A stretch of DNA of 37,829 nucleotides from a virus (IMGVR_UViG_3300010383_000113:1-37829); one strand, 5' to 3'; shown: positions 4,789-37,465, counted from the first letter of the stretch. Notes: a model not told the origin generated them from the letters alone. Program-made: numbers and translations.

Positions 4789-5383
4789 GCCACAGGCCCC
4801 TTTCGTGCAGTTTGGCGTCGGCCTCGGCCTCGGCGAAGGCCTTCATGAGGTCGGGGTTGAACTTGAACTTCCTGTAATAGCGGCCGTAGCCCTCGCGGAT
4901 GAGGTGTTCGTTGACGAGCCGGCCATCGAGGTAGACGTAGGCGATCAGCCGAGAGAAGCCGTCCAGCCGGTTCTTCTCGAACTCCAGGTGGACGTCCCGG
5001 CCTTCGAGCATGGCCTTGGTGTGGGCCGACGCCTCTTTGCCGAAGGGCTGGGGGCCACGATGGGTATCGACCGTCTCGGGAGTGTCGACGCCGATGAGCC
5101 TCACTTTGTATAGGACGTCGCCTCGGGCGACCTCGATGGTGTCGCCGTCGACGACCCGGATGACACGGACTTTGTCGAAGGCGGAAGGGCAGTCGCAGGA
5201 TTTGCAACACTGGCACGGGCCGGGCTTGGCACAGCAATCGTCGCCCGCGTAAGAGAGGAGTAGCAGGGAGATCAGGGCACTAAACACGATAAGGCCTCCT
5301 AGGTGGACTTGGGATGTTCCAGCTAGGAGACCTACACCGAAGGGCTTGACCCCCTCCCTGCTACGCACGCGAAGCGTGCTCAC
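4730..5383 (-). CDS. Thermonuclease (SNase) family protein with TM/signal anchor and Cys-rich linker
   Basis: VIRVVDGDTI, VRLIGVDTPET, FGKEAS, RLIAYVYLDGRLVNEHLIREGYG, AEADAKLHERGLW. Confidence 0.92.
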   Translation of the reverse strand: MSTLRVRSREGVKPFGVGLLAGTSQVHLGGLIVFSALISLLLLSYAGDDCCAKPGPCQCCKSCDCPSAFDKVRVIRVVDGDTIEVARGDVLYKVRLIGVDTPETVDTHRGPQPFGKEASAHTKAMLEGRDVHLEFEKNRLDGFSRLIAYVYLDGRLVNEHLIREGYGRYYRKFKFNPDLMKAFAEAEADAKLHERGLWHDDGQRDAGTPLQPVPREE

Positions 5384-6102
5384 GCATTGGTCGCTGTCGG
5401 ACGATTGTTCAAGATACAGACCGGCAAATCGCCATACTCCCGCTCGACCTCCCGGTCCAGGTACGCTAGATCGAACGAGGTTGGGTCGCCGGGCTTGGCG
5501 TGCCGATCCGTCACGGTGTCGAGCCGGTAGCCATCGTCGTCGCGGCGGATTCTCCAGACGATGTTCGACTTCCAGAAGATCGAGTCGGATGGGGAGTCGA
5601 GAAGGCTGTATCGTCCCCGTCCGCTCGAATTCGTCTGAATGGTCAGGAAGGCGAACTGATCGTTGTCTCGTGCGACCTGGTTGATCGCCCTGATCCCGTC
5701 GGAAATCTGTCGCAATTCGGGAGATTCGTCGCTGGTGAAGAAGTCGGGCTGGTCGATCATCCAGATCTTGCAGCGTGGCACGTTCTTCATCGTGGCGAGG
5801 ATTTTCTTAATCTGTCTCTTCTCGCGGAATCCCCCGACCATGAGTCCCGAGGAGTCATTGGCGTTCCTACTGATCGACCTCAGAAGCCGAGTCTTGCGAG
5901 ACTTGACAGGGGCGAGAATCGTGTAGAGGCCCGGATGCTCGATGGGCCGCATGCCGGGGATGCCGGTCGTGATCGAGAGGTGCCCAGGGTCTTCGACGAC
6001 GTCGCCGAGAACGCGGCCAGAGGTCGCGGCTGCCGCGAAGCCGCCCAGGCTGGCGGCGGCGGTGGTGCTTAGGCTCGTACGGATGAAGTCGCGTCGACGC
6101 AT
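5380..6102 (-). CDS. Tat-signal protein with degenerate DnaB/RecA-like domain
   Basis: MRRRDFIRTS twin-arginine signal; TILAPVKSRKT, IWMIDQPD, FLTIQTN, SDSIFWKSNIVWRIRRD resemble SF4 helicase motifs. Confidence 0.55.
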   Translation of the reverse strand: MRRRDFIRTSLSTTAAASLGGFAAAATSGRVLGDVVEDPGHLSITTGIPGMRPIEHPGLYTILAPVKSRKTRLLRSISRNANDSSGLMVGGFREKRQIKKILATMKNVPRCKIWMIDQPDFFTSDESPELRQISDGIRAINQVARDNDQFAFLTIQTNSSGRGRYSLLDSPSDSIFWKSNIVWRIRRDDDGYRLDTVTDRHAKPGDPTSFDLAYLDREVEREYGDLPVCILNNRPTATNA

Positions 6103-6109
6103 AGATGCC

Positions 6110-6658
6110 TCAGAGTTGGTAGGTGTGGAACTGCCGGTCCAGAGACTTCTGGGTGACTAGCTTGTCACCCTTGATGAGCCAGGCCGAAGAAGCCGAGTAT
6201 GAGGCGATTATGGGCCTGCATGTGTAGACTGAAGAGTGTTTCTGCCACTTGGTGCTGATGAAAAGCCTCCAGTCACGCAGTTCAGCCAGCTTCATCAGCC
6301 TGACACAACTACTATGACGGATCCGGTGATCTGCGGCGTACAGGAAGTCATCAGCGAAGACGGTCAATCCTTTTTGGCAAGGCAGTCTTTCAAAGTCCGG
6401 CTTTCTGTCGTGCTCGTGCTCGTAGGTCGACGACGTCCCGAGACAAAACTGACCTCCGATCTGTCGATGGAGCCTTCTCATCACAAACGAGGTGGCTACC
6501 GGGTTGTCGCCCGCGACGACGTAAATGCCGGGCTCTGCCGGTGCCTCGAACCCAACAATAGGCGGATAGAGCGTGGCGGCCTTTAGGGCTCCCCAGCCCA
6601 GGCTGGTCGTCAGAGGTACTGCTGCCCCGATGCGAATGAAGTCGCGTCGGTTGGTCAT
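6110..6658 (-). CDS. Tat-signal protein, likely divergent paralog of 5380-6102
   Basis: MTNRRDFIRIG signal; PGIYVVAG and TVFADDF at equivalent positions. Confidence 0.55.
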   Translation of the reverse strand: MTNRRDFIRIGAAVPLTTSLGWGALKAATLYPPIVGFEAPAEPGIYVVAGDNPVATSFVMRRLHRQIGGQFCLGTSSTYEHEHDRKPDFERLPCQKGLTVFADDFLYAADHRIRHSSCVRLMKLAELRDWRLFISTKWQKHSSVYTCRPIIASYSASSAWLIKGDKLVTQKSLDRQFHTYQL

Positions 6659-6661
6659 TTT

Positions 6662-6943
6662 TCAAGACTCCTCGTCGATGGTGATTCGAGTCCCGTCGGG
6701 AAGTTCGGCGTAGAGGACCGAGAACTTGCCGCTGCCGCATTCAGGCTCGACTTCGTCACCGTCGACGTCGACCCCTTCGGAGCGGAGCCATTCCAGCTCG
6801 CGGTTGCAGTCGCAGCCGAAGTTGCCGGTCGTCCACCAGAAGATACTGTAGTCATGCCATGAGAGGTTTTGGTCGATGACTCGGATCTCTCCGGTCTCGT
6901 TCTTCCGCATGGCGATCTTGTAGGACGGGGCGATCTCGTTCAT
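6662..6943 (-). CDS. Hypothetical protein (GNFGCDCNR motif)
   Basis: 93 aa ORF. Confidence 0.75.
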   Translation of the reverse strand: MNEIAPSYKIAMRKNETGEIRVIDQNLSWHDYSIFWWTTGNFGCDCNRELEWLRSEGVDVDGDEVEPECGSGKFSVLYAELPDGTRITIDEES

Positions 6944-6946
6944 GAT

Positions 6947-7234
6947 TCACCAGTAGGTTGCGGCCAGACATCCCGGGACGCCAATGAACTCGATCCACTG
7001 CTTGCAGGTCTTCTGAAGCCTTAGTTCAAGCCTGCCGCCTTCAGAGACCAAGGAGAAGACGGAATCGTCGTCGAGGCGTTCCACCCCGACGATTGAGAGA
7101 TCCTCGATGTCCTCGGCGAGGTTCTCGGCCAGGATGGCGACGGCATGTTCGGGCGACGTGGCGATCACCCAGGACTTTTCACCTATCTCGTCGATGAGAT
7201 AGACGGAGAGGGGAGTAGCAGGGAGGGCGGTCAT
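6947..7234 (-). CDS. Hypothetical protein
   Basis: 95 aa, ATGA coupling. Confidence 0.7.
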   Translation of the reverse strand: MTALPATPLSVYLIDEIGEKSWVIATSPEHAVAILAENLAEDIEDLSIVGVERLDDDSVFSLVSEGGRLELRLQKTCKQWIEFIGVPGCLAATYW

Positions 7235-7491
7235 ACGGTGCTCATCTCCTGGTCCGTGGCCTTGCCGGGGTTTTCATCTGGGTGGGATGGGGTGGTCGGA
7301 GGAGTCCTCTCAAGTCGACCGATGATTTTCTCTGCCTTGACGACCTCGACGATCTCTACGGATGTGACGTCATTCTGCTGAAGGAGAAAGTAAGCTTTCG
7401 CCATGGCGTCGTCCCGAGTGACGTCGTCATGCAGGGTGATCCGCCCTGGGTATTCACCTTGGCTTTCCTATCGGAGGAAGAACTCAGGCAT
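7231..7491 (-). pseudogene. Small gene with in-frame TAG at codon 8
   Basis: MPEFFLR*ESQGEYPGRITLHDD...EMSTV; RBS present, overlaps genes on both sides. Confidence 0.6.
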
Positions 7492-7651
7492 TTTGCCCTC
7501 CCTGCTCCCCGGCGGAGCCGGTTGTGAAATCCTGTCCGCACGTCAGACATCGCCAGTGATCGTAACAGCCGTACTGACCACGGTCCAGGATGCGGGTTCG
7601 TCGGTCTTCGCCGCATCCGTTGCAGTAGATCACCCCATTTTCGATCGGCAT
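7484..7651 (-). CDS. Small zinc-ribbon protein
   Basis: MPIENGVIYCNGC...WRCLTCG; GAGGAGG RBS. Confidence 0.7.
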   Translation of the reverse strand: MPIENGVIYCNGCGEDRRTRILDRGQYGCYDHWRCLTCGQDFTTGSAGEQGGQNA

Positions 7652-7827
7652 GCGGCCTCCTCGGCTCTCAAACAAGCCTTGCAGTCGGCGGGCGTAGGTT
7701 CGAGCCAAGCATGGACCCGGATGCCGGACTTGAAGATGTTGACTCCGCAATAGGCCCTGGGCAGACCTTCGCCCCCTTCTGTACGCGGGTCAATCTTGTG
7801 GACCGCCTTCTTCTTGGGCTTTGCCAT
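7630..7827 (-). CDS. Small Cys/His protein
   Basis: 65 aa; H...YCG...CKAC. Confidence 0.65.
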   Translation of the reverse strand: MAKPKKKAVHKIDPRTEGGEGLPRAYCGVNIFKSGIRVHAWLEPTPADCKACLRAEEAACRSKMG

Positions 7828-7845
7828 CAGAAAAGACTCCTAGAC

Positions 7846-8034
7846 TTACATCCTCTTTAGCCGTTCGACGTCGGCCCTCAAGAACTTCCCGGCCTGAACC
7901 CCGCCCTCGTAGGCTTGGCGATAGGGCTCGTTATAGAACTGGGGAGTTGGTGGCCAGTTATTTCGGCCGTCACGCACCCCCATGTCGAATGCTCGATGGA
8001 GATCTTTGTTGATCCCAGGGTCAATCGACCACAT
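7846..8034 (-). CDS. Hypothetical protein
   Basis: 62 aa; RBS supplied by the motif copy at 8043. Confidence 0.65.
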   Translation of the reverse strand: MWSIDPGINKDLHRAFDMGVRDGRNNWPPTPQFYNEPYRQAYEGGVQAGKFLRADVERLKRM

Positions 8035-8419
8035 TCTGCCCTCCCTGCTCCTCCGCCGCAGGCGGCTCGAACTTGGACTTCAGCCAGAGGTATTGCTGGT
8101 ACTGCCACTTCCGATTGTATTCTTCCTCGGCGGATTTCTCCGCTTCGTGTCGTTGACGTTTAACGACCTCGTCGCGAAGCTCATCATCGGTTCGCGTGTA
8201 GTCGGCCAACTTCTCGACATTCAGTCGCTCATCCTTCTCGCCCCAGTGATAGAACTGGACCTGGAAGTCGTCGAGACCTTCGGCGGCCTTGTGCTCCTCG
8301 ATGATCCGGACGATAAGGTTGGCGGAGGTCGGGGTCGGCAGATCTTCGGCGATCGGGTGTTCGTAATTCTTGATCACACGGTCGATCTTGTAGCACTCGA
8401 CCAGTTCGTCGAGGGTCAT
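8021..8419 (-). CDS. Hypothetical protein
   Basis: 132 aa; TAAGGAG RBS; ATGA overlap with the isrB stop. Confidence 0.75.
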   Translation of the reverse strand: MTLDELVECYKIDRVIKNYEHPIAEDLPTPTSANLIVRIIEEHKAAEGLDDFQVQFYHWGEKDERLNVEKLADYTRTDDELRDEVVKRQRHEAEKSAEEEYNRKWQYQQYLWLKSKFEPPAAEEQGGQNVVD

Positions 8420-9450
8420 GTTTTGATCTCCTTATGTAGGGTGAAGGTGGTTCTAAAGGAAAGGTAGGATAAAAACCTCAAGTCTTCTGGCCTGGCGTGT
8501 TGTGAAATCCGTTTTCCTGATACGAGATCGTGCAGGCTCACTCGGCCTTTCGAAGATCCGCCGACGAACGTTAGGCCGTGTTTTGGGTGTTCGACCAGAC
8601 TCCCTCGGTTGAATCCTAAACTACGTGTTCCGCCTTGTCGCCTTCGGAAGCCTCCTTTGGTTGGTTGTAATAGATGAAGTTGACGACGAGCATAATCAAA
8701 AGGTGTGGCTAACAACACTCCAATGAAATCGGGCTTGAAATGTCCGCCGACGATTGAGTTCGCCATCACCCAGGAATCGACGCAGTGGGCATGGAAGTCG
8801 TTGGACAGCTTGGCATTGATCTTCGTCAGGCCGTGTAGAGATCGTAGTTCGGCCGTCCTCTCACCTTCGACGAGCGTCAGGGCGGCGAACTTCTCCACTT
8901 CGGCATAGAGCCACTGCTTGCCGACCTGGAGAGGGCTGAAGGATTTGTTCCAGCGATATTTTCCTTTCTTCGTCTCGGCTTTAACGTCCTCGACGACGAC
9001 GTGCTTGATAGGATACATTTTGCAAAGCCAGTTCAGGACCCGCAACTTCCATTGCCAGCGAGCTTTGGTGGAAGGCGGGATTCGTCCTTCGGGGGCCGCT
9101 CGATTGAGTCTGCACTTGCGATAAGGAGTCTTTCGAGATCGCCTAGTTCTTCGCATGTTACGTCGAACTTCCATCTTCTCCTCGACGCCCGTACGGGCAT
9201 CGGCCTGGATGTTGAGGAAGGTCTTGTGACGTGACTTGACGGTGAATCCTTCCTTCTTCGATCCGGGATCGACGCCGACGACGACTGCCTGAGTGACGCG
9301 GGCCGAGGGCTCGACGTTGAGCCGGACACAGAACACGCCGTGCTTCCAGAACGGCGTCGCCTTGTCGGACTTGATCCAGGACGCAGCCCGGTTGGGTGTC
9401 GTGGGCATGAGCGGTTGTTGGTTTTGGTCAACGACGGGAACGCTGAGCAT
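8416..9450 (-). CDS. isrB: IsrB, OMEGA RNA-guided nickase (PLMP/RRXRR, split RuvC, no HNH)
   Basis: 344 aa; QPLMPT, RuvC-I VGVDPGSK, Arg-rich bridge helix RRNMRRTRRSRK, RuvC-II VVVEDVK, RuvC-III HAHCVDS; no HNH insert. Confidence 0.9.
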   Translation of the reverse strand: MLSVPVVDQNQQPLMPTTPNRAASWIKSDKATPFWKHGVFCVRLNVEPSARVTQAVVVGVDPGSKKEGFTVKSRHKTFLNIQADARTGVEEKMEVRRNMRRTRRSRKTPYRKCRLNRAAPEGRIPPSTKARWQWKLRVLNWLCKMYPIKHVVVEDVKAETKKGKYRWNKSFSPLQVGKQWLYAEVEKFAALTLVEGERTAELRSLHGLTKINAKLSNDFHAHCVDSWVMANSIVGGHFKPDFIGVLLATPFDYARRQLHLLQPTKGGFRRRQGGTRSLGFNRGSLVEHPKHGLTFVGGSSKGRVSLHDLVSGKRISQHARPEDLRFLSYLSFRTTFTLHKEIKT

Positions 9451-9661
9451 GGGCGGTAAGCCCTCCTGTGTACATCCCTTCGACGCTGGCGACCCGAGAG
9501 GAAGAAGACTAGGGAGGCATCCTCTACGTCGTTCGGCCTACCACGGCCAGGTCGCTAACTGGCGGTTCGAAACCGCCTCGTCTAGTCGCGTTTTAACTTG
9601 CTTCGGACGGCGGTCGGGCTTCCGTCTTGACAAGCCCCTTCCTTCAGGATGGGGTTATGAC
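8416..9661 (-). mobile_element. IS200/IS605-superfamily isrB element (omegaRNA + isrB), no tnpA
   Basis: End-like GTCATAACCCCATCCTGAAGGAAGGGGCTTG at the omegaRNA 5' end; more AT-rich than flanks; 3' boundary uncertain. Confidence 0.7.
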
Positions 9662-9681
9662 TCCGTTCGCGGTAGCAGGGA
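9451..9681 (-). ncRNA. omegaRNA (HEARO-like): scaffold about 9661-9451 plus 5' guide about 9681-9662
   Basis: Structured leader directly upstream of isrB with typical blocks ACCCC..CCTGAAGG..GGGGCTTG, GACTAG, GGATGCCTCCCTAGTC..CTCT, GTCGAAGGGA; internal hairpin GGCGGTTTCGAACCGCC. Confidence 0.8.
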
Positions 9682-9892
9682 GGGTCAACTCTTCAAGATG
9701 CTGCATCGCAGTGAAGTCGTCGGCTTCGACAACGGCCTTGGCCAATCTTCCAAGTCGTTCCGCCGGGAAGCCCTTCTTCTCCAGAAGCCAGATCAAATCA
9801 CCCATCACCATGTGGCGGCATACCTGGGGATAAGGGAAGTTGAGTAGGCCCTTGATGAGTTCGAAGATGTCGTCTTGGGTGATCGGTGTCAT
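9644..9892 (-). CDS. Hypothetical protein; last codons lie inside the IS end
   Basis: 82 aa; RBS supplied by the motif copy at 9899. Confidence 0.7.
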   Translation of the reverse strand: MTPITQDDIFELIKGLLNFPYPQVCRHMVMGDLIWLLEKKGFPAERLGRLAKAVVEADDFTAMQHLEELTLPATANGVITPS

Positions 9893-10098
9893 CGCCCTCC
9901 CTGCTCCTCTTTTGGATGTCCAATATGGTAGGCCTGGCAGATTTCGCAGCGGTACGCCTTCATCCCCTCTGGACTCTTCCAGGTGTTGTGGCTCCAGTGG
10001 AGCGTCTCAATCGCCAACTGGGCCTCGACCATGGAGTAGTAACGACGCTTCGCCCTGAAACACTGGCGGACCGGCTTGAGTCTGAGCTTGAATCCCAC
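9889..10098 (-). CDS. Small basic zinc-finger-like protein
   Basis: AYRCEICQAYHIGH. Confidence 0.7.
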   Translation of the reverse strand: MGFKLRLKPVRQCFRAKRRYYSMVEAQLAIETLHWSHNTWKSPEGMKAYRCEICQAYHIGHPKEEQGGR

Positions 10099-10130
10099 GA
10101 GAGCCTCCTATCAATCAAGGTGATCGAGAT

Positions 10131-10159
10131 ATGATAGAGGACCCTCGTGGAAAGATCAA
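10131..10159 (-). promoter_or_regulatory. Sigma70-type promoter
   Basis: Minus strand TTGATC-N17-TATCAT in an intergenic gap. Confidence 0.6.
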
Positions 10160-10182
10160 GCGACTTCGTCGGTAGCAGGGAG

Positions 10183-10452
10183 TCAGCACAAAAGGCCCGT
10201 AGTCACCACGAGGTCGAACAGGCGGCCTTCGAGGGGAAGGCTGACCTCCTCATGGCGGAAGCTGCCGTCTTCGTTGTAGAAGAAATCACTGATCGCGTCG
10301 GCGACCTCGTCGTCGGTCTGCATCGAGTTGATGAAATGGTAGTTCCAGGAGTGGAGACGGTCGGCCGTGGCCTTGTCGACGACCAACTCGTAGAAACGGA
10401 TCGATTCGGGGACTTCCTGGAAGATGACGAAGACCTTGAGCGTTTCGGTCAT
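10183..10452 (-). CDS. Hypothetical acidic protein
   Basis: MTETLKVFVIF...; AGGAG RBS. Confidence 0.7.
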   Translation of the reverse strand: MTETLKVFVIFQEVPESIRFYELVVDKATADRLHSWNYHFINSMQTDDEVADAISDFFYNEDGSFRHEEVSLPLEGRLFDLVVTTGLLC

Positions 10453-10460
10453 GGGGGCTC

Positions 10461-11003
10461 CTAGAGAATCCTGGGGTTTCGCAGGTTGGTTCCACACCAT
10501 GGGCAAAATGAGATTTCGACGGCCGACTGGCCGCCGTCATGGACGATCAGGCCGTAGGTCCCGCTGTTGGGCCAGTAGACCACCAATTTGTCAGGACAGT
10601 CGTATGGACTCTCGTGCTGGTCGCAGGTGTGCTGGAGGTTGGACCTCATGCGGTCGCAGCAGATGTGCTCGCTGGGATGCGGCCGTGGTTCGTCGACTGC
10701 CTCTTTCTTGACGCCCGAACGAACAACCTCTATGACATCTGCCACACGGCGGAAGTCCGGATATTTGTTCTGATTGTACTTCAAGAATCGTTCGACATTC
10801 TTGCCGATCGGCGAGTGAGGGCTGGCTACCATGACGACCTGAACATTTTCGTCGTCTGCGGTTTTCCAGACGGGGACGGACTCCCATCTCTTATCAGCCA
10901 GAATCTCCGAGTAGAACGCCAGGCGATAGTCGTCGACGTTATCGGCCAACACCCCCTGCTCCTCTTCTGAGGATTGAGAATTATCGACGTAGTTGGAAGC
11001 CAT
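10461..11003 (-). CDS. Hypothetical protein with Cys-rich C-terminal domain (DUF6980-like)
   Basis: Likely start MASNYVD coupled to the parB stop; CCDRM..CDQH..DCPD..YGLIVHDGG..ISFCPWCG. Confidence 0.7.
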   Translation of the reverse strand: MASNYVDNSQSSEEEQGVLADNVDDYRLAFYSEILADKRWESVPVWKTADDENVQVVMVASPHSPIGKNVERFLKYNQNKYPDFRRVADVIEVVRSGVKKEAVDEPRPHPSEHICCDRMRSNLQHTCDQHESPYDCPDKLVVYWPNSGTYGLIVHDGGQSAVEISFCPWCGTNLRNPRIL

Positions 11004-11914
11004 CAGGCCATCGCCTCCTTGAGCGAATCCATGTCCATATTGACGAACAGGAGGCCGTACTCGTTCCAGAGTCGTTCGACCTCGTCGTCGTTCACGGTGC
11101 CGTCGAGGTAGTCGAGCAGCAACGCGGCCATGTTCGACGCAACCTCTCCCTCCTGGGACATCTTCTTGAGGAAGTCCTTGAGTTGCTTGATGCCCCGCCT
11201 GACGGAGGCCCCACGCTCGCGACGTTCCTCGCGGACCGAATCGGCGGTGACGGGGCCGCCCTCCTCGCGGAGGCTCTCGAAGACCTCGACCTGGGCCTCC
11301 TCGTCGCCCACCTTGGTGAGTTCGAGGGCCGTGCTGACGGCGATCTCGCCGGAGTCGACGCTCTGTCGGATCGGGTCGGGCAGGCTGAGGAGGTCGAGGT
11401 GCCGGTAGCACCAGGAGACGTTCTGGTTGAACTGGTGGGCGATCTTGGCGATCGAGAAGCCCATGTCCTCGTGGAGCCGCCGGATGGCGTGGGCGATCTG
11501 GACGGGCTTGGGCTGGAGCCGGTGGAGGTTCTCGGCGACGTTGCAGAGGGCCGCCTCCGCCCGGTTCATCTTGGTCGTGACGCACTTGATCTTGAAGTCG
11601 GGGCAGGTGCCCGACTCGATCAGCCAGATGGCCGCCTTGAGCCGCCGATTGCCGATGGCCACCTGGTAGCGACCCTTGTCGACGTTGCGGACCAGGATCG
11701 GCTGGAGCTGGCCGACCGACCCCTGGTTCTCGTCGTCGGCCTCCGACCGGGGCCGCATGCTCATGGCGAGGGCGATCAGCTCGTCGTCGACCTCCAGCTT
11801 CTCGCCGAATCGGGAGAGGTTCTCCTCGTCGTCGAACAGGATGGCCCTGGGGTCGACCAGGAACATGTTGTGACGCTCGACCTCGTAATCATTCCACGTC
11901 GTGGGGCTTGCCAT
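11003..11914 (-). CDS. ParB/RepB/Spo0J family protein
   Basis: GQLQPILVR, QVAIGNRRLKAA (GxRR CTP-binding motif), AENLHR, then HTH-like SIAKIAHQFNQNVSWCYRHLDLL. Confidence 0.88.
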   Translation of the reverse strand: MASPTTWNDYEVERHNMFLVDPRAILFDDEENLSRFGEKLEVDDELIALAMSMRPRSEADDENQGSVGQLQPILVRNVDKGRYQVAIGNRRLKAAIWLIESGTCPDFKIKCVTTKMNRAEAALCNVAENLHRLQPKPVQIAHAIRRLHEDMGFSIAKIAHQFNQNVSWCYRHLDLLSLPDPIRQSVDSGEIAVSTALELTKVGDEEAQVEVFESLREEGGPVTADSVREERRERGASVRRGIKQLKDFLKKMSQEGEVASNMAALLLDYLDGTVNDDEVERLWNEYGLLFVNMDMDSLKEAMA

Positions 11915-11921
11915 GGGTGTC

Positions 11922-12044
11922 TCAGTAGGGCTTGTGATAGTTGGTGAAGAGGCTGACGTAGTCGGCGATCTGGACGGGCCAGGTGATGATGGCGTAGAGC
12001 CAGAAGAACCAGAAGATGAGGGAGAGGCCCTGCACGGTCGACAT
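11922..12044 (-). CDS. Small membrane protein
   Basis: Own translation MSTVQGLSLIFWFFWLYAIITWPVQIADYVSLFTNYHKPY. Confidence 0.5.
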   Translation of the reverse strand: MSTVQGLSLIFWFFWLYAIITWPVQIADYVSLFTNYHKPY

Positions 12045-12083
12045 GGGCTGATCTTTACCTTGAGCCATATTAAGCCTCGTGGT

Positions 12084-12113: not shown

Positions 12114-12119
12114 GATCGG

Positions 12120-29731: not shown

Positions 29732-29734
29732 CCG

Positions 29735-29953: not shown

Positions 29954-29972
29954 GGCCGCCACCTCCGAAGTT

Positions 29973-30194
29973 CTAACTATCGTCCCTGATGATCGAAACC
30001 GTGACGTCGCCGTCTGTGTACTCCTGATCGACCATGAGGCGTTCCCTGAGTTCTTCACGACTTTCAAGGGCCGGGATGACCCCGTTGTCTTCGGCGTCGT
30101 CCAGGCAGCATTCGACGGCCTCCTCGATCGTCTCGGTCTTGGTCAGGATCCTCCGTTCGCCGTCTCGTTCCTCGATCACGATGTAGCCTAGCAT
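29973..30194 (-). CDS. Acidic hypothetical protein
   Basis: 73 aa ORF. Confidence 0.65.
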   Translation of the reverse strand: MLGYIVIEERDGERRILTKTETIEEAVECCLDDAEDNGVIPALESREELRERLMVDQEYTDGDVTVSIIRDDS

Positions 30195-30251
30195 GGTCGC
30201 CTTTCGGTCGGCTTCGCCGACGTAGCAGGGAGGGCTGTCTACAAACGCCGC

Positions 30252-30599
30252 CTAGATACTAACATCGACTTTGGCCGTCGGGTACTTCTCGCACGCCTCC
30301 AGGAGTCTTTTGAGCCACGGCAGGAAGTTCTTGTAGGTGTCCCATCCGTTTGGCGAATCGTGGCTCCGGAAGTGGTCGGGATTGGCTTCCATCGCGGCGA
30401 TCCCGTCCCGCAGCGTGGAGATGAGTTGATCGGCCTGCGTGATGCCGAGTTCTTCGGGGTGCCAGAGCGGAGTGTAGAGGCCCGCTTCCTCGGCCATGCG
30501 TGTGAGGTTGTGGGTGATGTTGGCGTCGAAGACGATGGTCTCGAACCGCTCGCCGTCATCGTAGGTGCCGGAACGGATCAACGAGATGTCGAGGGACAT
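30252..30599 (-). CDS. Hypothetical protein
   Basis: MSLDISL..ANITHNLTRMAEEAGLY..LW.PEE..PNGW..Y; AAGGAG RBS. Confidence 0.8.
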   Translation of the reverse strand: MSLDISLIRSGTYDDGERFETIVFDANITHNLTRMAEEAGLYTPLWHPEELGITQADQLISTLRDGIAAMEANPDHFRSHDSPNGWDTYKNFLPWLKRLLEACEKYPTAKVDVSI

Positions 30600-30615
30600 A
30601 GGGGCTCCTTTTACT

Positions 30616-30894
30616 TCAAGGGGCGGGGCGAGACTCTAGGACTTCCCGGATAGAGGTTTCAGAATACCCGGACTCGATCAGGAATTGAATCTGGGACTGG
30701 AATCCGCCGTTGTTGATCTCGGACGCTTTGTGCTCGGCCCGACCGATGATCTCTTCTTGCTCGGCCTCATCGTCGGTGGAATTGAGGGCCTCTTCCACGT
30801 CCGATTGACAGGTGGTGTGAACCAGCTCGTCCAAGGCGTCCTCATCACACCCCTCGGCCCTCTTTAGAAGATGAACCACTCTCTCGTCTGACAT
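30616..30894 (-). CDS. Acidic hypothetical protein
   Basis: LDELVH...ASEINNGG..SQIQFL. Confidence 0.75.
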   Translation of the reverse strand: MSDERVVHLLKRAEGCDEDALDELVHTTCQSDVEEALNSTDDEAEQEEIIGRAEHKASEINNGGFQSQIQFLIESGYSETSIREVLESRPAP

Positions 30895-30963
30895 ACGATC
30901 AATCTCCAGCCAGTAGGATGATGCCCCCTGCCCTCCCTGCTACTCTCCACGCCGCAGGCGTGC

Positions 30964-31251
30964 TCAGTGGGTATAGGCCGGATGGTTCAGGGGACTGTCG
31001 GCGTCCATCCAGTGAGTACCACAATGGCCGCATCGCCACTCGAAGCCGCTACAGCATCCGATGTGGGCCACCATGCCCGGGGACGGCTTGTCGTCGTAGT
31101 CGTCGCAGTCATCCCAGGCGTAAGCCGAGAGTTCGCGGCACCCAGGGCAGATTTCGATGAAGCCCGAGAGGATCAGTCGGCGAACTTCGAACCCATTCCT
31201 CCGAATCAAATCACCATACTCGGACAACCAGTCGTCCGAACGCTGGCCCAT
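30964..31251 (-). CDS. Zinc-ribbon protein
   Basis: CPGC...CGHC; AAGGA RBS. Confidence 0.7.
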   Translation of the reverse strand: MGQRSDDWLSEYGDLIRRNGFEVRRLILSGFIEICPGCRELSAYAWDDCDDYDDKPSPGMVAHIGCCSGFEWRCGHCGTHWMDADSPLNHPAYTH

Positions 31252-31488
31252 AATGAGAGTCCTTAAGGCCCCACTTGAGAAGTAGTCGATACCTCACACG
31301 AAGTTGTCTGGGTGGTGGGAGCAGGAGGCCCCATGAATGGTATTGACGATCGACACATCGCCAGGGATCGTCGCCCCGCATTCGTCGCAGATAACCTCGC
31401 CATCCTCGATGTCGTCGAACACGTCCGCATCGTCTTGGAGTGGCTCATGAAAAGTCCTTAAGGCCCCATATGAAGAAGTAATGGGGCC
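31252..31488. repeat. Imperfect direct repeat of about 30 bp upstream of two adjacent genes; second copy forms a hairpin
   Basis: AGTCCTTAAGGCCCCA at 31258 and 31453, each followed by a GAAGTA block; GGCCCCAT-N11-ATGGGGCC at 31462-31488. Confidence 0.75.
31294..31422 (-). CDS. Small Zn-binding protein (start uncertain)
   Basis: Frame MFDDIEDGEVICDECGATIPGDVSIVNTIHGASCSHHPDNFV. Confidence 0.45.
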   Translation of the reverse strand: MFDDIEDGEVICDECGATIPGDVSIVNTIHGASCSHHPDNFV

Positions 31489-31840
31489 GTAATCTCAAAG
31501 TATGAAGGGGTTAATCCCCAGGGAATGGCCGCGAAGTCCACGCGATTGTCGCATGGGGTTGGAGAATGGCCTGGGGGATGTTCGGTGACGTCTCACGCCC
31601 TACTAGATAGGACGAAGACCGTCAGGAGTGAGGGGAAAGGTGAGAGATCGCGAGAGGTTGGTATCGACGTAAGTCGTTTGCCTGTCAGGCGATTATAGAG
31701 AGGTCCTTTCTGGGGATGATAATAAAACCCAATAAACAACACAGTAACCATAGAAGGAGACAGCGAAAGGGGGCTTGAGAGGGTTGCACCTCGTCCCCCC
31801 TTCCTGCTCCACCTAGGATTTTAGGTGGTTGCCTAGGCAT

Positions 31841-32059
31841 CTATCTCCTCTGTAGTCGCTTCCTCCAAAGTCCATGATATCCGCCGGAAGTCCATGCGTA
31901 ATCTTGACTTACGAACGCTCCGCGAGTGATATCCCAGAACCCGACCTGGACGCAGGGCTTCGTGAAGCAGTAGATCCTGAGCCCATCATCGTTACGTCCC
32001 AGGATGGTGACGCCGTGCGAGATGAGGTTTTCTAGCTCGCGATCGGGGATGTAGGACAC
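31841..32059 (-). CDS. Hypothetical protein
   Basis: 72 aa ORF. Confidence 0.6.
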   Translation of the reverse strand: MSYIPDRELENLISHGVTILGRNDDGLRIYCFTKPCVQVGFWDITRGAFVSQDYAWTSGGYHGLWRKRLQRR

Positions 32060-32245
32060 GTTCGGAGCCCTCGTTAAATGGGTTTTTGACCCTAGGGAAA
32101 ACCTACGCCATCAAAACTGTACTATCGATCTAGCACACTCAGCGTAACATCATGAAATACAATGAGTTACGCCGAGATTTGTGGTTTGGAAGGGCTGGGA
32201 GTTCAGAACATTAAACTACCGAAAACAACATTAAACTACGTCCGA

Positions 32246-32473
32246 TCAGCCTCCGACACCGATCTTGATGCCCGTTCTGGTGCTGGCACGGCGATGGTTG
32301 CGTCCCGAGGTTCCGAGACGATGCGTCCGCAGGGTTTTGCTCTTGTGGTTCTTGGTGTGACCTCCACGCCCGCCCCAGCGATCCGGCCTGACGCAGAACG
32401 GGCAGCAGACGAAGGCGTAGTACCAGCCAACCGACATCTTATCATCGCGGAGCGGGGCGTATCCGATCTTCAT
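32246..32473 (-). CDS. Small basic hypothetical protein
   Basis: 75 aa; CCPFC; GAGGA RBS. Confidence 0.5.
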   Translation of the reverse strand: MKIGYAPLRDDKMSVGWYYAFVCCPFCVRPDRWGGRGGHTKNHKSKTLRTHRLGTSGRNHRRASTRTGIKIGVGG

Positions 32474-32474
32474 T

Positions 32475-32732
32475 TTAGTCGTCCTCGACCCTCTCTTGCT
32501 CCCAGTGTTCGGCGATCTCGCTCCAGTCCACCTTATTGTAGTCGGCCGCCCCGTCCATGTCCGGGGTGCCGTTGGGCATCAGCTCGCGGACGAACTCCTC
32601 GACGTCGTCGGCCGTGATCTCGTTGTACCGCCGACGCATCCAGCGTATCCGCTCGCGGTACATCGGCTCGTCGTTGTCGATCCAGAGGGCGACGTTCCAG
32701 GTCTCCCAGTTGGTCCAGCCGTTATACGACAT
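32475..32732 (-). CDS. Phage-type hypothetical protein (YNGWTN.ETW family)
   Basis: MSYNGWTNWETWNVALWIDNDE...VDWSEIAE. Confidence 0.8.
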   Translation of the reverse strand: MSYNGWTNWETWNVALWIDNDEPMYRERIRWMRRRYNEITADDVEEFVRELMPNGTPDMDGAADYNKVDWSEIAEHWEQERVEDD

Positions 32733-32738
32733 GCGTCG

Positions 32739-32963
32739 TCACTCCTTCGGAGTGGGAGCAGGGAGGGTGATCTCGATGAAGACGGGCCAATCGTAGGTGA
32801 TGACTTCGTCTTGGTACATGGAGAGGAAGGCGTTACCGATGGCTTCTTCTACGGTGCGGCCGAAGTGTCCGTCCCTGTAAGGAGGATCGTCGACCACGGC
32901 CCTCGCGTTGTATCCTCCCGGACACTCCTTGACCGTGATCTTGACGTTAGATGTGATCGCCAT
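32739..32963 (-). CDS. Small protein, HicB-like fold possible
   Basis: ITVKECPGGYNARA...FGRTVEEAIGNA. Confidence 0.6.
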   Translation of the reverse strand: MAITSNVKITVKECPGGYNARAVVDDPPYRDGHFGRTVEEAIGNAFLSMYQDEVITYDWPVFIEITLPAPTPKE

Positions 32964-32973
32964 CTCACCCCTG

Positions 32974-33330
32974 CTACTCTTCAATCTTCTCCCTGATGGG
33001 AGACAGGCTTTCGTGGCTGACGCAGAACAGCTCGCCGGCCGGGTATCCATCTTCGGCGATCCTGACGTAGTAGTGCAAGTCGTCGCCGTCGACTTCGATC
33101 TCGACGCCTTCGTTGATGTCCAGGGCTTCGCGGATGTCGTCGTCGCTTAGTCCGTAGCCATAGACCGTCGTCGGGATCCCGTCGATCTCGCGGACGATCT
33201 CGGAGATGATCTCGGCGTCGAGTTCGATTTCCCCTTTGCCGTAGACGTCGTTCACGTCGTATCCGTCTTCGGCGTTCCCCCACACGTCGTAGGTGCGGAC
33301 TTCCCATCGGGTCGTGATCTTCACCTTCAC
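32974..33330 (-). CDS. Acidic hypothetical protein
   Basis: YDVWGNAEDGYDVND motif. Confidence 0.75.
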   Translation of the reverse strand: MKVKITTRWEVRTYDVWGNAEDGYDVNDVYGKGEIELDAEIISEIVREIDGIPTTVYGYGLSDDDIREALDINEGVEIEVDGDDLHYYVRIAEDGYPAGELFCVSHESLSPIREKIEE

Positions 33331-33359
33331 TCCTTCCAGTCGTGGAGAGTAGCAGGGGG

Positions 33360-33632
33360 TTACCTGATGGAATACCCGATTTGACGTAGTGCGTCGGAGT
33401 GGCTGAGTGTTCCTTTGGATCCTCCTATGGGGAAGTGATCTGTTTCTTGTCCTTTCTCATTGGCGGCAAAAATCAAGACTTCCGTGTCGCCACGCCTGAA
33501 GGCGGCGGAAACGACGACGTACTCATAACGAGAGCCGTCGCGTGCTTTCATCGGAGGCTTGAGTCGGTAGAGGACCGCGTCTCCCTTGTGGCAGCCGGCA
33601 GGTCTACAACCCATGACCTTGGCGATTCTCAT
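33360..33632 (-). CDS. Hypothetical protein
   Basis: LYRLKPP..YVVVSA..EVLIF..SH..AL..IGY. Confidence 0.75.
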   Translation of the reverse strand: MRIAKVMGCRPAGCHKGDAVLYRLKPPMKARDGSRYEYVVVSAAFRRGDTEVLIFAANEKGQETDHFPIGGSKGTLSHSDALRQIGYSIR

Positions 33633-34047
33633 TGTCTCTCCGCCTCATTTCATTGGTGTGTGGGAGGAGGTTTCCGTCTGGCATTTTGTAGGCGTGGGTA
33701 CTCTCTTCCGTATTGATGTCCTGGAAGCGATCGGCCGGGACATCCATCGCCAGAATCCGCTTGCCGTCCAGGACATGCGTCCAGACCAGGCGGTTCTCCC
33801 AGATGTCGTACAGGACGTCGAGGATGCCCATGCACCGGCCGCGATAGTGAGCCGACATGGCCTTCCAGGGCGGGGAACTCATGATGGCCGAACGCTGTTC
33901 CAGGATCTCTTCTTGCGGCAAGCCCTCCTCGAAGGCCACCATGTAGAGGTTTCGGAGGCTGGACTTGACGCTACAGTACGCCTTGTAGTCCTTCTCCCAT
34001 CGCAGTTCAGCCCGACGCTTCCTCTTCTCCTCGATTGTCATGGGCAT
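33604..34047 (-). CDS. Hypothetical protein
   Basis: MPMTIEEKRK...; GGAG RBS. Confidence 0.7.
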   Translation of the reverse strand: MPMTIEEKRKRRAELRWEKDYKAYCSVKSSLRNLYMVAFEEGLPQEEILEQRSAIMSSPPWKAMSAHYRGRCMGILDVLYDIWENRLVWTHVLDGKRILAMDVPADRFQDINTEESTHAYKMPDGNLLPHTNEMRRRDNENRQGHGL

Positions 34048-34103
34048 GGTCGTTACGCTCCGGCTATCGGACAGTGGGATTGTAATGGGATCGCCCCTCC
34101 CTG

Positions 34104-34352
34104 CTACTCTTTGTCGATCAGATGGGGAAAGTAGACAGTCAGCGTCTCGTCCTCGTCGACGTTGAGCATATCTTCCCACCTGGGGATGAGACTGGGATCC
34201 CCCGCCGGAATGGGGGAGATCCCTCTAGCCGCGTCGCTCGCCTCACCCCCAAAGACCATGTCCACCCCGTCCCCCATCGGATGTTCTTCCCCGGTGGGGT
34301 TGTGGCGTACGGCGTAGAAGCTGGAATACTCGATCACGCTGAAAGTCTTCAT
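34104..34352 (-). CDS. Hypothetical protein
   Basis: 82 aa; GGAG RBS. Confidence 0.7.
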   Translation of the reverse strand: MKTFSVIEYSSFYAVRHNPTGEEHPMGDGVDMVFGGEASDAARGISPIPAGDPSLIPRWEDMLNVDEDETLTVYFPHLIDKE

Positions 34353-34573
34353 GACGACTCACTCCGTTCGTCGGGAGCAGGGAGGGGTTCGAGCCAGATC
34401 TCATGGATCACGATTTGTGGCCCATCTTGGAGTTCGGCCAGGAAGATGTGCGGTTGTCGCGGGTGGTATCGGACGATGGCGTGGGCGTCCCCGGTGGGGC
34501 TGTAATTGAATCTCATCTTGAGGTATTCGAGATAGTGGGGATTGATCCTCACTCGGTCGCCGGCCTTGAACAT
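34349..34573 (-). CDS. Small SH3/KOW-like protein
   Basis: MFKAGDRVRI; bracketed by motif pair 34374/34581. Confidence 0.65.
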   Translation of the reverse strand: MFKAGDRVRINPHYLEYLKMRFNYSPTGDAHAIVRYHPRQPHIFLAELQDGPQIVIHEIWLEPLPAPDERSESS

Positions 34574-34603
34574 CGCCCCTCCCTGCTCCTCTTCTCGTGG
34601 TAT

Positions 34604-34774
34604 TCAGTGGGAGCGGGCCTGGATCATCTCCCGGACGCAGGCGGCCCGGAACAAATCTCCCATGTCGACGGACAGTTCGTGCTCCTGATAGAGTTCGTCG
34701 ATGGTGGCGTCCTCCAGGAACCGGCGGATGTTGGTGCGGACCTGGAGGTGATAGGCGGTCATGAAATAGGGCAC
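34604..34774 (-). CDS. Small protein, paralog of 37536-37688
   Basis: Own translation MPYFMTAYHLQVRTNIRRFLEDATIDELYQEHELSVDMGDLFRAACVREMIQARSH. Confidence 0.75.
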   Translation of the reverse strand: MPYFMTAYHLQVRTNIRRFLEDATIDELYQEHELSVDMGDLFRAACVREMIQARSH

Positions 34775-34808
34775 GGTCGTCTCCTAATGGGGAGGAGCAG
34801 GGAGGGGA

Positions 34809-35288
34809 TCACTGGTAAATCGGCTTGATGATCAGGTCTCCGGTCGTCTTGGCGGTCTTGGTGGGTTGTCGTTCGGTGATGATGAAGGCCATGAGGTGAT
34901 TGGGGAATGGCGTATGTCTGTAGGTGTCCGGATAGTGCGGGGGGACGTATCCCCCGGGGTTTCCGATATAGCCGGCCGGCTTGACGTCGAATGTCCGGTC
35001 TTCGCCGCGAATCGGGACGACCAGCGGCTTGACGTTCATGGTGCGGAGGGCTTCAGGCGAGGCGAACAGGTATCCTCGGCTGTAGTCGGGATCGCCCTTA
35101 GGCCCCTTCCAGACGACCGAGGCCCGAGCGTCCATCGGCGTCCCGGACGAATCGAAACCCGGACCAAGCTCGAAGACCGCCATTACGACGACGTCGTCAG
35201 GCAGGCCGTAAGTCTGGTTGTACCACACGATCGAATCTCCAATGGGGAGTAGCAGGGAGGGCCGCCCCTGAATATAGGACAGCCCCAC
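34809..35288 (-). CDS. Hypothetical protein (true start probably a GTG near 35228)
   Basis: Open frame; GGAG RBS near 35237. Confidence 0.55.
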   Translation of the reverse strand: MGLSYIQGRPSLLLPIGDSIVWYNQTYGLPDDVVVMAVFELGPGFDSSGTPMDARASVVWKGPKGDPDYSRGYLFASPEALRTMNVKPLVVPIRGEDRTFDVKPAGYIGNPGGYVPPHYPDTYRHTPFPNHLMAFIITERQPTKTAKTTGDLIIKPIYQ

Positions 35289-35304
35289 CCCCTGCTCCGG
35301 TTTT

Positions 35305-35571
35305 TCAGGCTGCTTTGGCCCTGCGGACGATGGTCAGGGCTTCCCTTTCCCTTCGGTTCAGCGTCCAGTCGATCGGTCGGCCCGACACCATGACCCTGAT
35401 GTCCGCGTCCATCCCCATCCTCTTGAGGGCCCGGCGGAGCCGCTTGACGTCCGCATGGTTCCGGTCGTGGTTCAGGGAGGAGTATCCGAGGGTTTCCAAA
35501 TTCCATTGGTCGGATGTCGTCGTGCCGTACAGTCGTCCGCTTTCGTCTCGGGAAAGGCTTATCGTGATCAT
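35305..35571 (-). CDS. Hypothetical protein
   Basis: 88 aa ORF. Confidence 0.65.
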   Translation of the reverse strand: MITISLSRDESGRLYGTTTSDQWNLETLGYSSLNHDRNHADVKRLRRALKRMGMDADIRVMVSGRPIDWTLNRREREALTIVRRAKAA

Positions 35572-35590
35572 CGTCCGGCCCTCTCGTCGA

Positions 35591-35773
35591 TCAGGTGAAT
35601 TTCAAACGTCCCGACGCGGTCGCGGTCTTGAGCCGGGATCCCACCAGGCGGATCGGCTTCGCGTCCGGGTGGTCGCATGGGGGACGCGGGACGTCGAGCG
35701 AAGTGCCGAACACGGACGCCATCCTGACCAGCCGCCTTTGCACGTCTTGTCGGACCTTGTCGCGATAGTGCAT
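35591..35773 (-). CDS. Small basic protein
   Basis: MHYRDKVRQD...; AGGAG RBS. Confidence 0.55.
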   Translation of the reverse strand: MHYRDKVRQDVQRRLVRMASVFGTSLDVPRPPCDHPDAKPIRLVGSRLKTATASGRLKFT

Positions 35774-35804
35774 GTTGGAGACTCCTAAAGAGGTTCCGAG
35801 GGGA

Positions 35805-35999
35805 TCAGGCGAAGACCACGCCCACCCCGTCGCCTTCCCGCCAACGGATCCGCTCCACCATCTCGGACGCATCCGACGCATAGTGGAACGGCGTGGCGTT
35901 GTAGCTGCGATTCGTCCAGCGATAGAACCGGACGCCCGACCGCCTAATCTGGCGGAAATAGACCTTGCGACCGTTCCTCAAGAGCTTGACCAGGTACAT
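35805..35999 (-). CDS. Small basic protein
   Basis: 64 aa ORF. Confidence 0.6.
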   Translation of the reverse strand: MYLVKLLRNGRKVYFRQIRRSGVRFYRWTNRSYNATPFHYASDASEMVERIRWREGDGVGVVFA

Positions 36000-36072
36000 G
36001 AGAGACCCTTAAACGAAATCAGCCGACGTCCCTTTCGAGAAGCCGGCCGCACCGCGTCGAATTGGCGAAACC

Positions 36073-36315
36073 CTATCCCGCCCGCTTGCCCTTGCCCTCC
36101 CGATAGTCGCGTTCCATCTCGGCCAGCTCGGCTTCCGTGGCGAGCCCCTTCCGCACGACGGTCAGGACGACGCGACACACGCCGCTATTGTTCTGGAACG
36201 GATTGAGCGGCCCCTTGACGTGGTCGATCCGGATGACATGCCCCCTATGGTTGAAGTGTCTCCCCCTGACTGCATTCTCACGGCCGACGAGGTCGATTTG
36301 CATGGTGGTACGCAT
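36073..36315 (-). CDS. Hypothetical protein
   Basis: MRTTMQIDL... Confidence 0.6.
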   Translation of the reverse strand: MRTTMQIDLVGRENAVRGRHFNHRGHVIRIDHVKGPLNPFQNNSGVCRVVLTVVRKGLATEAELAEMERDYREGKGKRAG

Positions 36316-36343
36316 CTCCGACGGTTTGCCCTCCCTGCTACTC

Positions 36344-36574
36344 TCACAACGCCCAGGACGGATGATCGGCCGCATCTTCGACGGTTCGGCATCGGGTCGA
36401 CTTATGAATCGGAATCTTACGGCGGGTGAAACGCTCCCAGGCATAAACTTGATCATCGTCGTGTCCACACGGTTGTCCGACCCTGACGATCCGGCCGGAC
36501 GCCACCCATTGGCCAAAGGCCCGATAGACCAGCTCCACTATCTGCCCGATCTCGGCCTCACCTACCGTCATCAC
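36344..36574 (-). CDS. Hypothetical protein
   Basis: MTVGEAEIGQIVEL... Confidence 0.55.
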   Translation of the reverse strand: MMTVGEAEIGQIVELVYRAFGQWVASGRIVRVGQPCGHDDDQVYAWERFTRRKIPIHKSTRCRTVEDAADHPSWAL

Positions 36575-36614
36575 GGACTTTCCCTTTCGCAAATTGAGAA
36601 GAGTAGCAGGGAGG

Positions 36615-36878
36615 TCAGGGGAGATCGGGGACCGCATCTCGGTTGCCGGTCAGGACGCCGTATCGCGTCCCTAGGCTGGCGTAGACGAGATCCCCGGGCT
36701 TGTCGCCAACCATCGGCTCGTATCCTCCCCGGCGTCGCCACGATGCGTAGCTCTGCATGGCGTTGATGAAACCCTCGAAATCGGCGTCATCCCCATGCAG
36801 GCCATCCATGAGGACGGACGCCCCCTCTAAACACACTTTCGGATCCAACGTCGTAACCCCCACAAGCGGATTTCCCAA
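36615..36878 (-). CDS. Hypothetical protein
   Basis: DP..CL...Y.SWRRRGGYEP motif; bracketed by motif pair 36603/36902. Confidence 0.7.
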   Translation of the reverse strand: MGNPLVGVTTLDPKVCLEGASVLMDGLHGDDADFEGFINAMQSYASWRRRGGYEPMVGDKPGDLVYASLGTRYGVLTGNRDAVPDLP

Positions 36879-36923
36879 GGGGAGGGACGAACGCCGCCCC
36901 TCCCTGCTACCGGCGAAGCCGAC

Positions 36924-37151
36924 TCAATAGTCGGTGTCGGCCCGGACCCTTTCCCGGACGAGGTTCTCGGCCTTCTCGGGATCGGCCGAATCGTGGACGC
37001 GATGCCCCCATAGCACCATGACCAGGCCCGAATCGACGTGGTGGACGATCCCCTGGCATGATGGATACAGACCCCGGGCCAGGCACTCCGAATCCACCAA
37101 TCGGACCACGTTTCCGACGCTCAACTTCCGACCGTACGGATCCCTTTGCAT
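36924..37151 (-). CDS. Small SH3-like protein
   Basis: MQRDPYGRKLSVGNVVRL...GIV..V.VLW...AENLV. Confidence 0.7.
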   Translation of the reverse strand: MQRDPYGRKLSVGNVVRLVDSECLARGLYPSCQGIVHHVDSGLVMVLWGHRVHDSADPEKAENLVRERVRADTDY

Positions 37152-37234
37152 CCCACCAGACCTCCCACTAGACGGACCTTCCAAGTCAGATGGTAAGGCG
37201 GACGATCGCCCCTCCCTGCTACACGCCGAAGGCG

Positions 37235-37465
37235 TCAGACCTCTTGCGAGATGCGGTCTTTGCGGACGAGATTCGCGGTATTGACGCGGGACGGAATGTC
37301 GCCGTTCTTCCAATCGACGTCGGCAATGGTCATCGGGCCGACGTCCTTCAGGCTCAGGATCACGCCCCGGGCATGGGGGAGATCCCCCGAGTAGGCACCG
37401 ATGGAACGCAGCCATCCGGCCGAGTAGGCGACCTGATCCCCAACCTCAAACCTACGCTTCGCCAT
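37235..37465 (-). CDS. Small SH3-like protein
   Basis: FEVGDQVAY..ARGVI..ADVDW..VNTANLV. Confidence 0.75.
   Translation of the reverse strand: MAKRRFEVGDQVAYSAGWLRSIGAYSGDLPHARGVILSLKDVGPMTIADVDWKNGDIPSRVNTANLVRKDRISQEV

Follow-up and report, generated by a model that had tools for sequence, protein, structure and literature searches.

An evenly spaced, strand-specific DNA word with optional mini-hairpins is a candidate priming signal in an uncultured phage clade

Introduction

The virus record IMGVR_UViG_3300010383_000113 (165,829 bp, 62.6% GC, 86% complete) begins with a stretch, bases 1-37829, in which short hairpins with C-GNA-G triloops directly follow copies of the word CCCTGCTMC. We refer to this whole stretch of 37,829 nucleotides as the window. 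An initial annotation of the window had interpreted the combination as a sequence-plus-hairpin signal read on single-stranded or extruded DNA, with a phage RNA polymerase (RNAP) promoter, a primase site, and an HUH nuclease or recombinase site as candidates. Thus, it was of interest to determine what kind of signal this is and which machinery reads it. Here, we describe a one-directional sharp word that is selected at the DNA level, with each strand separately having a copy every 2-3 kb and the best copies ending in a same-strand DNA mini-hairpin. Of the explanations considered, a primase site is the likeliest, albeit unproven. Our literature searches found no account of a comparable signal with even spacing.

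A sharp word followed by same-strand mini-hairpins

The core CCCTGCTMC is present in 138 copies in the genome (79 on the plus strand and 59 on the minus strand), 41 of which are perfect cores within the window (23 plus and 18 minus), corresponding to 1.08 per kb in the window vs. 0.75 elsewhere. It is also sharp, as its one-mismatch neighbors reach only 0-10 copies. The preferred context is C-M-C-Y ahead of the core, which together form a 13-mer, followed by either TCY or a hairpin on the 3' side, so that about 7 bases are preferred in addition to the 9 that are invariant. To count hairpins, we required a C-GNA-G loop with a stem of at least 4 bp and the loop located 4-12 nt 3' of the core on the same strand; stems of 4-7 bp were counted directly, and the ViennaRNA model contains no GNA bonus and scored both strands alike. 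Genome-wide, 22 of the 138 cores (16%) are followed by such a hairpin, whereas 0.29 were expected (binomial p = 1.6e-34), and not one of the cores has a hairpin on its 5' side or a loop on the opposite strand. There is no general excess of these loops away from the motif, where C-GNA-G pentamers close 5-bp stems in 0.58% of cases vs. 0.71% for other C-NNN-G pentamers. The proposed association of hairpin and motif therefore withstood comparison with both the 5' side and the background.

The 22 hairpins have 22 different stems, all fully paired, as the initial annotation had claimed for its smaller set, but the stems are less free to vary than was thought. They follow the consensus CG-S-C-GNA-G-S-CG, and counting from the loop, the third pair is G:C in 19/22 and the fourth is C:G in 18/22. 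The loops are GAA in 13 cases, GCA in 6, GTA in 2, and GGA in 1. Likewise, the hairpin does lie just 3' of the core, yet it is the base of the stem rather than the loop that is held in place: in 20 of the 22, the stem begins at offset 0 and touches the core's final C, while the distance to the loop varies from 4 to 7 nt. A perfect 13-mer precedes the hairpin at 18/22 sites vs. 38/116 of the others. Hairpin sites are mostly found at gene borders, and TCY continues 39 of the 56 other border sites. We found no conserved sequence 3' of the hairpin. A second DNA-type class of hairpin, C-GGA-G with tandem GA mismatches, a pairing that is stable in DNA, follows four more copies of the motif. The stability of C-GNA-G loops in DNA is established (PMC13037366). 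RNA loops of the cUUCGg or GNRA type were considered and rejected, since the sequences cannot form them and the loop tracks the motif strand. As originally suggested, the loop follows the motif strand instead of the mRNA strand, in both gene orientations, and this strand-locking of the GNA loops, together with the second DNA-type class, supports a signal that is read on single-stranded DNA.

All twelve hairpins of the initial annotation are present at their positions and strands. Nine follow a perfect CCCTGCTMC, those at 13845 and 27929 follow a one-mismatch core, and the one at 28914 represents a degenerate duplicate of the site at 27929: positions 27923-27976 and 28908-28961 form a 54-nt duplication (81% identical), in which both the core and the GNA loop have decayed in the 28914 copy. 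The sites in the window are as follows (window coordinates).

1404..37222, both strands: dispersed motif family (window share), 41 perfect cores
5352..5379, plus: 13-mer and 6-bp GAA mini-hairpin, offset 0
7496..7521, plus: 13-mer and 5-bp GGA mini-hairpin, offset 0
8039..8065, plus: 13-mer and 5-bp GCA mini-hairpin, offset 1
10161..10184, minus: core and 4-bp GAA mini-hairpin, offset 0
13828..13857, plus: one-mismatch core and 5-bp GAA hairpin, offset 4
27929..27957, minus: one-mismatch core and 6-bp GAA hairpin
28914..28942, minus: decayed paralogue of the 27929 site, with degenerate core and AAA loop
30207..30234, minus: 13-mer and 6-bp GAA mini-hairpin, offset 0
30931..30962, plus: 13-mer, TCTC spacer, and 6-bp GCA hairpin, offset 4
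32740..32767, minus: 13-mer and 6-bp GAA mini-hairpin, offset 0
36898..36921, plus: 13-mer and 4-bp GAA mini-hairpin, offset 0
37210..37235, plus: 13-mer and 5-bp GAA mini-hairpin, offset 0
23901..23928, plus: second hairpin class, with core, offset-0 stem, tandem GA mismatch, 2 bp, and GGA loop
34355..34386, minus: second hairpin class, 4-bp outer stem, offset 0
23310..23339, minus: second hairpin class following a one-mismatch core
9662..9684, minus: core and first half of a second-class hairpin, cut by an IscB/IsrB-type element

The last of these sites owes its state to an IscB/IsrB-type element (RRXRR, PF14239; window 8416-9661, minus strand), which is inserted directly after the motif copy and splits the second-class hairpin in half; a Y1 transposase was not found in the genome.

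Hairpins of this kind are used in the virion RNAP promoters of phage N4, so a hairpin promoter for a phage RNAP, or a promoter element for phage sigma factors, had to be considered. The short stems (4-7 bp), the GNA triloop, and the C:G closing pair lie 3' of conserved bases and of a putative start on the would-be template, as in N4. The hairpin occupies the template strand at 15 of the 22 sites, several of which lie 9-110 nt ahead of a start codon, and the phage has 2-3 sigma-70-family genes. However, N4 promoters are few and all occupy the template strand ahead of genes, whereas this template bias is not significant (p = 0.16), the 7 sense-strand sites are directed away from their local genes, the fixed stem base with a varying loop distance and the single GGA loop differ from N4 promoters, and no single-subunit or virion RNAP was detected using Pfam, PHROGs, and a motif search of this 86% complete record, in which the PF00940 control was silent. 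A promoter would also leave unexplained the evenly spaced cores found inside genes in both orientations (see below). We consider this explanation highly improbable.

Each strand carries its own evenly spaced copies

The distribution of the word is far from random. Same-strand gaps have coefficients of variation (CV) of 0.62 and 0.60 on the two strands vs. 0.98 under random placement (p at most 5e-5), with medians of 2.0 and 2.5 kb and maxima of 6.6-6.9 kb, while the CV of the combined strands is 0.89. Beyond 40 kb, only 8 same-strand pairs lie within 700 nt of each other compared to 25 expected, whereas opposite-strand pairs are as frequent as expected (26 vs. 24.5). Because same-strand copies avoid each other and opposite-strand copies are indifferent, the two strands behave independently. 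There are 88 cores in genes, when codon usage predicts 13.4 and six control words match their expectation, and these cores occupy all frames (43 sense and 45 antisense). Moreover, the sites in use have a median distance of 1668 nt to the next same-strand site, compared to 504 nt for unused synonymous opportunities, and the eight best imperfect copies lie mid-gap within the largest same-strand gaps. From the spacing, the codon-level excess, and the gap-filling, it follows that selection acts at the DNA level, limiting how far apart the copies can lie on either strand taken by itself. Within this genome-wide, evenly spaced signal, the hairpin is an optional 3' flank.

Opposite-strand copies do appear clustered, with 58% lying within 400 nt, but no such effect is seen across the core at 40-100 kb, where genes are dense (p = 0.34), and it is therefore probably due to shared intergenic space. 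A KOPS-like polarity was rejected, as there is no replichore (ori/ter) skew; GC skew tracks gene direction only and has no origin-terminus pattern. As a separate observation, some copies form back-to-back inverted pairs 11-38 nt apart, in which the minus copy always comes first and the two copies are mutually pairable.

1404-1431, 17356-17410, 35249-35298 (window): back-to-back inverted motif pairs
38055-38088, 62973-63007, 155417-155450 (genome): back-to-back inverted motif pairs

The spacing bears directly upon two further explanations. In one, a ParB-like or RepA protein binds the double-stranded sites to organize or partition the genome. Suitable genes exist, namely ParA/ParB and RepA (PF10134) at genome 123632-128435, together with another ParB-like gene inside the window (11003-11914). 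Still, an organizer of duplex DNA would be expected to space its sites regardless of orientation, and opposite-strand sites do not repel one another, nor would it account for strand-locked GNA loops. Iterons and parS sites cluster rather than disperse. Overall, a role of this type is very unlikely. In the other explanation, which is scarcely more probable, the word marks nick sites in virion DNA, as in T5, phiKMV, or tf, or is a target of HUH nucleases. HUH enzymes do read sequence at the foot of a hairpin, but neither a Y1 transposase nor a reverse transcriptase (RT) was found in a genome search that detected its positive controls, and the even in-gene spacing on both strands would be unexplained for HUH, recombinase, and diversity-generating retroelement (DGR) sites alike. 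The nick motifs of T5, phiKMV, tf, and Rembedalsseter are similarly sharp, clade-enriched 9-mers located mostly in genes (PMC11780129, PMC3517423). Unlike the present word, they are one-stranded and uneven. In addition, nicks at the seven opposite-strand motif pairs that are 11-46 nt apart would break the DNA. Thus, the N4 and HUH proposals both fail, as no phage RNAP, RT, or Y1 transposase was detected in this 86% complete record.

The word is shared by a clade of relatives

The phage has no cultured relative in INPHARED. Using primase homologues, we were led to about 160 loci, in which relatives are known only as pieces of 13-65 kb. One primase clade (support 0.997) stands out, as 7/7 of its members carry a dialect of the word on both strands. 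The dialects consist of a pyrimidine tract ending in CC(C/T)GC(C/T), with 5'-GCY-3' kept in every one of them; a weaker form is seen in L023 and L027. Wherever testable, the dialect spacing is even: p = 0.003 and 0.007 for the L021 phage over 40 kb, 0.19 and 0.02 for the L022 phage, 0.065 and 0.003 for the L043 contig, and at most 2e-4 for the pooled short loci. Site positions mostly turn over between phages, with two exceptions, located in the primase gene and in dnaE. The copy inside the primase gene is positionally conserved in 6/7 clade members and falls on Pro-Cys codons, where the cysteine is the final one of a second zinc finger, itself an insertion within the catalytic domain. Its positions are as follows.

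94070 (genome, minus): motif copy inside the primase gene
L021 10733, L022 10727, L028 10736, L109 10700, L191 2894: conserved in-primase copy in relatives

Offset-0 GNA hairpins occur once each in L021 and L028 (2/67 of the relatives' sites, 0.18 expected), compared to 2/46 sites in the comparable core region of this genome. In L028 (1-18353), free C-GNA-G hairpins with stems of at least 5 bp were about three times as frequent (12/218) as other C-NNN-G hairpins (42/2485), even at a distance from the motif. Overall, the word is a real, selected, clade-wide cis signal.

Seven large, AT-rich relatives share the replication module but yielded no enriched, evenly spaced word, either in an unbiased scan that recovered the word in both positive controls or with targeted patterns, and they contained neither a YYCCTGY-like remnant nor a shortened dialect rich in AT (TTCCTGY and the like). 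There was a weak pooled excess of TGCT, which may be a codon-pair bias. There was also no enrichment in 121 Planctomycetota genomes, the host of the phage not being established; the apparent enrichment in L189, a Planctomycetia metagenome-assembled genome, was dismissed, as its contexts are unrelated and the genome is at control level. A search of viral contigs for the motif-plus-loop pattern returned 13 chance single matches without motif enrichment, and a single-protein primase scan found nothing. The trees of the primase, DnaB, RecA, DnaE, and PD-(D/E)XK nuclease all return the same clade. A 136-amino-acid gene upstream of recA (genome 98650-99060, minus strand) is present in L021, L022, L028, L109, and L027; by tblastn it was not detected in the seven motif-free genomes, and it has no family or Atlas match.

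Candidate readers of the word

The need for a copy every few kilobases on each strand, combined with a strand-locked DNA hairpin, points to a two-way, genome-wide process that exposes single strands, namely lagging-strand priming or end resection. We regard it as probable that the phage's replication or recombination machinery recognizes the word as a strand-specific signal in single-stranded DNA. Outside the window, the genome encodes a bacterial-style replisome consisting of a split DnaE, DnaB, a DnaG-type primase, a bacterial-type protein that binds single-stranded DNA (SSB), RecA, and a PD-(D/E)XK nuclease. The primase gene (genome 93621-94805) adjoins those for DnaB, RecA, the split DnaE, and SSB. 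The fold of its 394-residue product is that of a complete DnaG, with Aquifex primase 2au3 as the best match (E = 5e-14), and the protein retains the conserved Zn-binding and Toprim catalytic residues. Of the candidates in the initial annotation, the primase site is the best surviving explanation, albeit unproven and at less than even odds, and we tentatively favor the motif as a long site at which the DnaG-type primase of the phage would initiate, with mini-hairpins that may exclude SSB.

Under a priming role, the primase would read the pyrimidine tract ending in GCY and start a purine-rich primer, which would be pppGCAGGG... if the triplet were read like the GCT of T4. Either strand could serve as the lagging-strand template, with forks moving in both directions, as when phage replication is driven by recombination, and the motif spacing would set the length of Okazaki fragments. 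The 3' flank, be it a TCY tract or a core-touching mini-hairpin, would keep SSB off or mimic a fork junction, resulting in a stronger site. It is conceivable, if somewhat doubtful, that a DnaG-family primase evolved a 9-13 nt site templating a primer of fixed sequence, such that all Okazaki starts are hard-coded on both strands, some of them reinforced by SSB-excluding hairpins. Several features are consistent with priming. The motif is available on each possible lagging-strand template at Okazaki-scale intervals, and its spacing matches the range of T7, in which fragments average about 3 kb and span 1-6 kb (PMC12839067). T4 primase initiates at GTT/GCT (PMC10359460), while M. tuberculosis DnaG initiates at GC(G/C), with 3' flanks of 7-10 nt affecting priming. 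Mini-hairpins mark the G4 origin and the ssiA priming signals, CGGCGAAAGCCG is a poor SSB binder (PMC13037366), and the stem consensus found here is near-identical to that of those mini-hairpins, which keep SSB away at the G4 origin.

A number of observations weigh against the primase. Known DnaG primases read 3-5 nt, and the seven AT-rich relatives have the same primase family, DnaB, and DnaE without the word, so that recognition of a long site would imply a gain confined to the clade. Since all five gene trees agree, co-inheritance of the word and the primase does not name the reader, and the presence of a known triplet inside the word says little, given how many have been described. A hairpin is present at only 16% of sites (2/67 in relatives), and one relative has an 11-kb same-strand gap. 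The hairpin geometry of the G4 origin is opposite to the one required here. The same is true of ssiA, in which primers begin on the 3' side of the hairpin (PMC8567376).

Two other readers would fit the spacing as well as priming does, each with a lower but appreciable probability. In the first case, the word would be a Chi-like stop or self-mark, at which a phage nuclease or helicase-nuclease resecting or degrading DNA from either direction halts when it meets the word in the correct orientation, thereby sparing phage DNA; the 3' tail would be passed to the phage RecA, and capping or protection of the 3' side would fall to the mini-hairpin. This requires a sharp word in both orientations with capped gaps, all of which are seen, and the phage encodes RecA, the PD-(D/E)XK nuclease, an ERCC4-domain protein, and nucleotide salvage genes. 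A lineage-specific reader would also account for the absence of the word from AT-rich relatives. Conversely, no RecB/AddA-like helicase-nuclease was found in the phage, the PD-(D/E)XK nuclease is also encoded by the motif-free relatives, and mimicry of a host Chi is not supported by the sampled genomes of Planctomycetota, a candidate host phylum. Known Chi sites are 5-8 nt long and lack hairpins. The second possibility, of about equal standing, is a site for a clade-specific phage protein that acts in an orientation-dependent manner, such as a helicase or primosome loader or a translocase. Several small genes, including the one at 98650-99060, are common to motif-bearing phages and undetected in the seven motif-free genomes, and most phage genes are unannotated. 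Even so, no candidate has a recognizable fold or domain, and absence by tblastn may merely reflect divergence, with the relatives available only in pieces. Returning to the primase, its site remains our preferred explanation.

Comparison with known systems

Judged by the features tested, the signal belongs neither with the N4 promoters or nick motifs nor with the ssi signals or HUH/DGR targets. It shares with the sites of T7 gp4, T4 gp61, and bacterial DnaG primases a one-directional single-strand signal whose 3' flank matters (PMC12839067, PMC10359460), the GCY resembling T4 GCT and M. tuberculosis GCC, as well as T7-range spacing and an encoded DnaG-fold primase. By contrast, known primase sites comprise 3-5 nt and are not written at even intervals, whereas the phage word has 9 invariant bases and is kept against codon usage on both strands; its priming role is putative. 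The G4 complementary-strand origin and RSF1010 ssiA/ssiB similarly place a GNA- or GAAA-loop mini-hairpin beside a specific single-stranded sequence (PMC13037366, PMC8567376), and the bases recognized in ssiA abut the foot of the hairpin on its 5' side, the same as in the phage motif. However, these are limited to one or two sites per replicon and prime 3' of the hairpin, unlike the 138 dispersed copies with optional hairpins described here. The Chi sites of RecBCD/AddAB are oriented, non-degenerate words with density under selection, but the phage word is longer, has hairpins, and lacks a detected cognate helicase-nuclease, replichore polarity, and Planctomycetota enrichment. The evenly spaced words of other phages (crAss-like, TGTGGGCA) are without strand-locked mini-hairpins.

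Even in T7 and E. coli, neither primase triplet choice nor the determinants of Okazaki length have been settled (PMC12839067). If the phage word does function in priming, this would be a genome whose priming map is readable from its sequence, with codons and residues bent to accommodate the sites. If the reader is instead a nuclease, the word would be a phage-encoded Chi-like self-mark, which is undescribed in the literature searched. In either case, strand-locked mini-hairpins serve as evidence for a signal that is read on single-stranded DNA.

Genome context

The terminase, tape measure, and other virion genes lie outside the window at 40-76 kb. The ParA/ParB and RepA genes suggest a phage-plasmid lifestyle in an uncultured clade. 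No Rfam families or tRNA genes were found in the genome. The largest open reading frame of the window (779 amino acids; 1451-3790, minus strand) has no Pfam or PHROG match, and an exact look-up was also empty, while a DndB-like protein (PF14072; genome 115487-116890, minus strand) scored below the cut-off. Two soil sequencing runs contained short contigs from a related strain, which were uninformative regarding mechanism. The GC content is ~58% in the small-gene regions and rises to 71% in the virion module.

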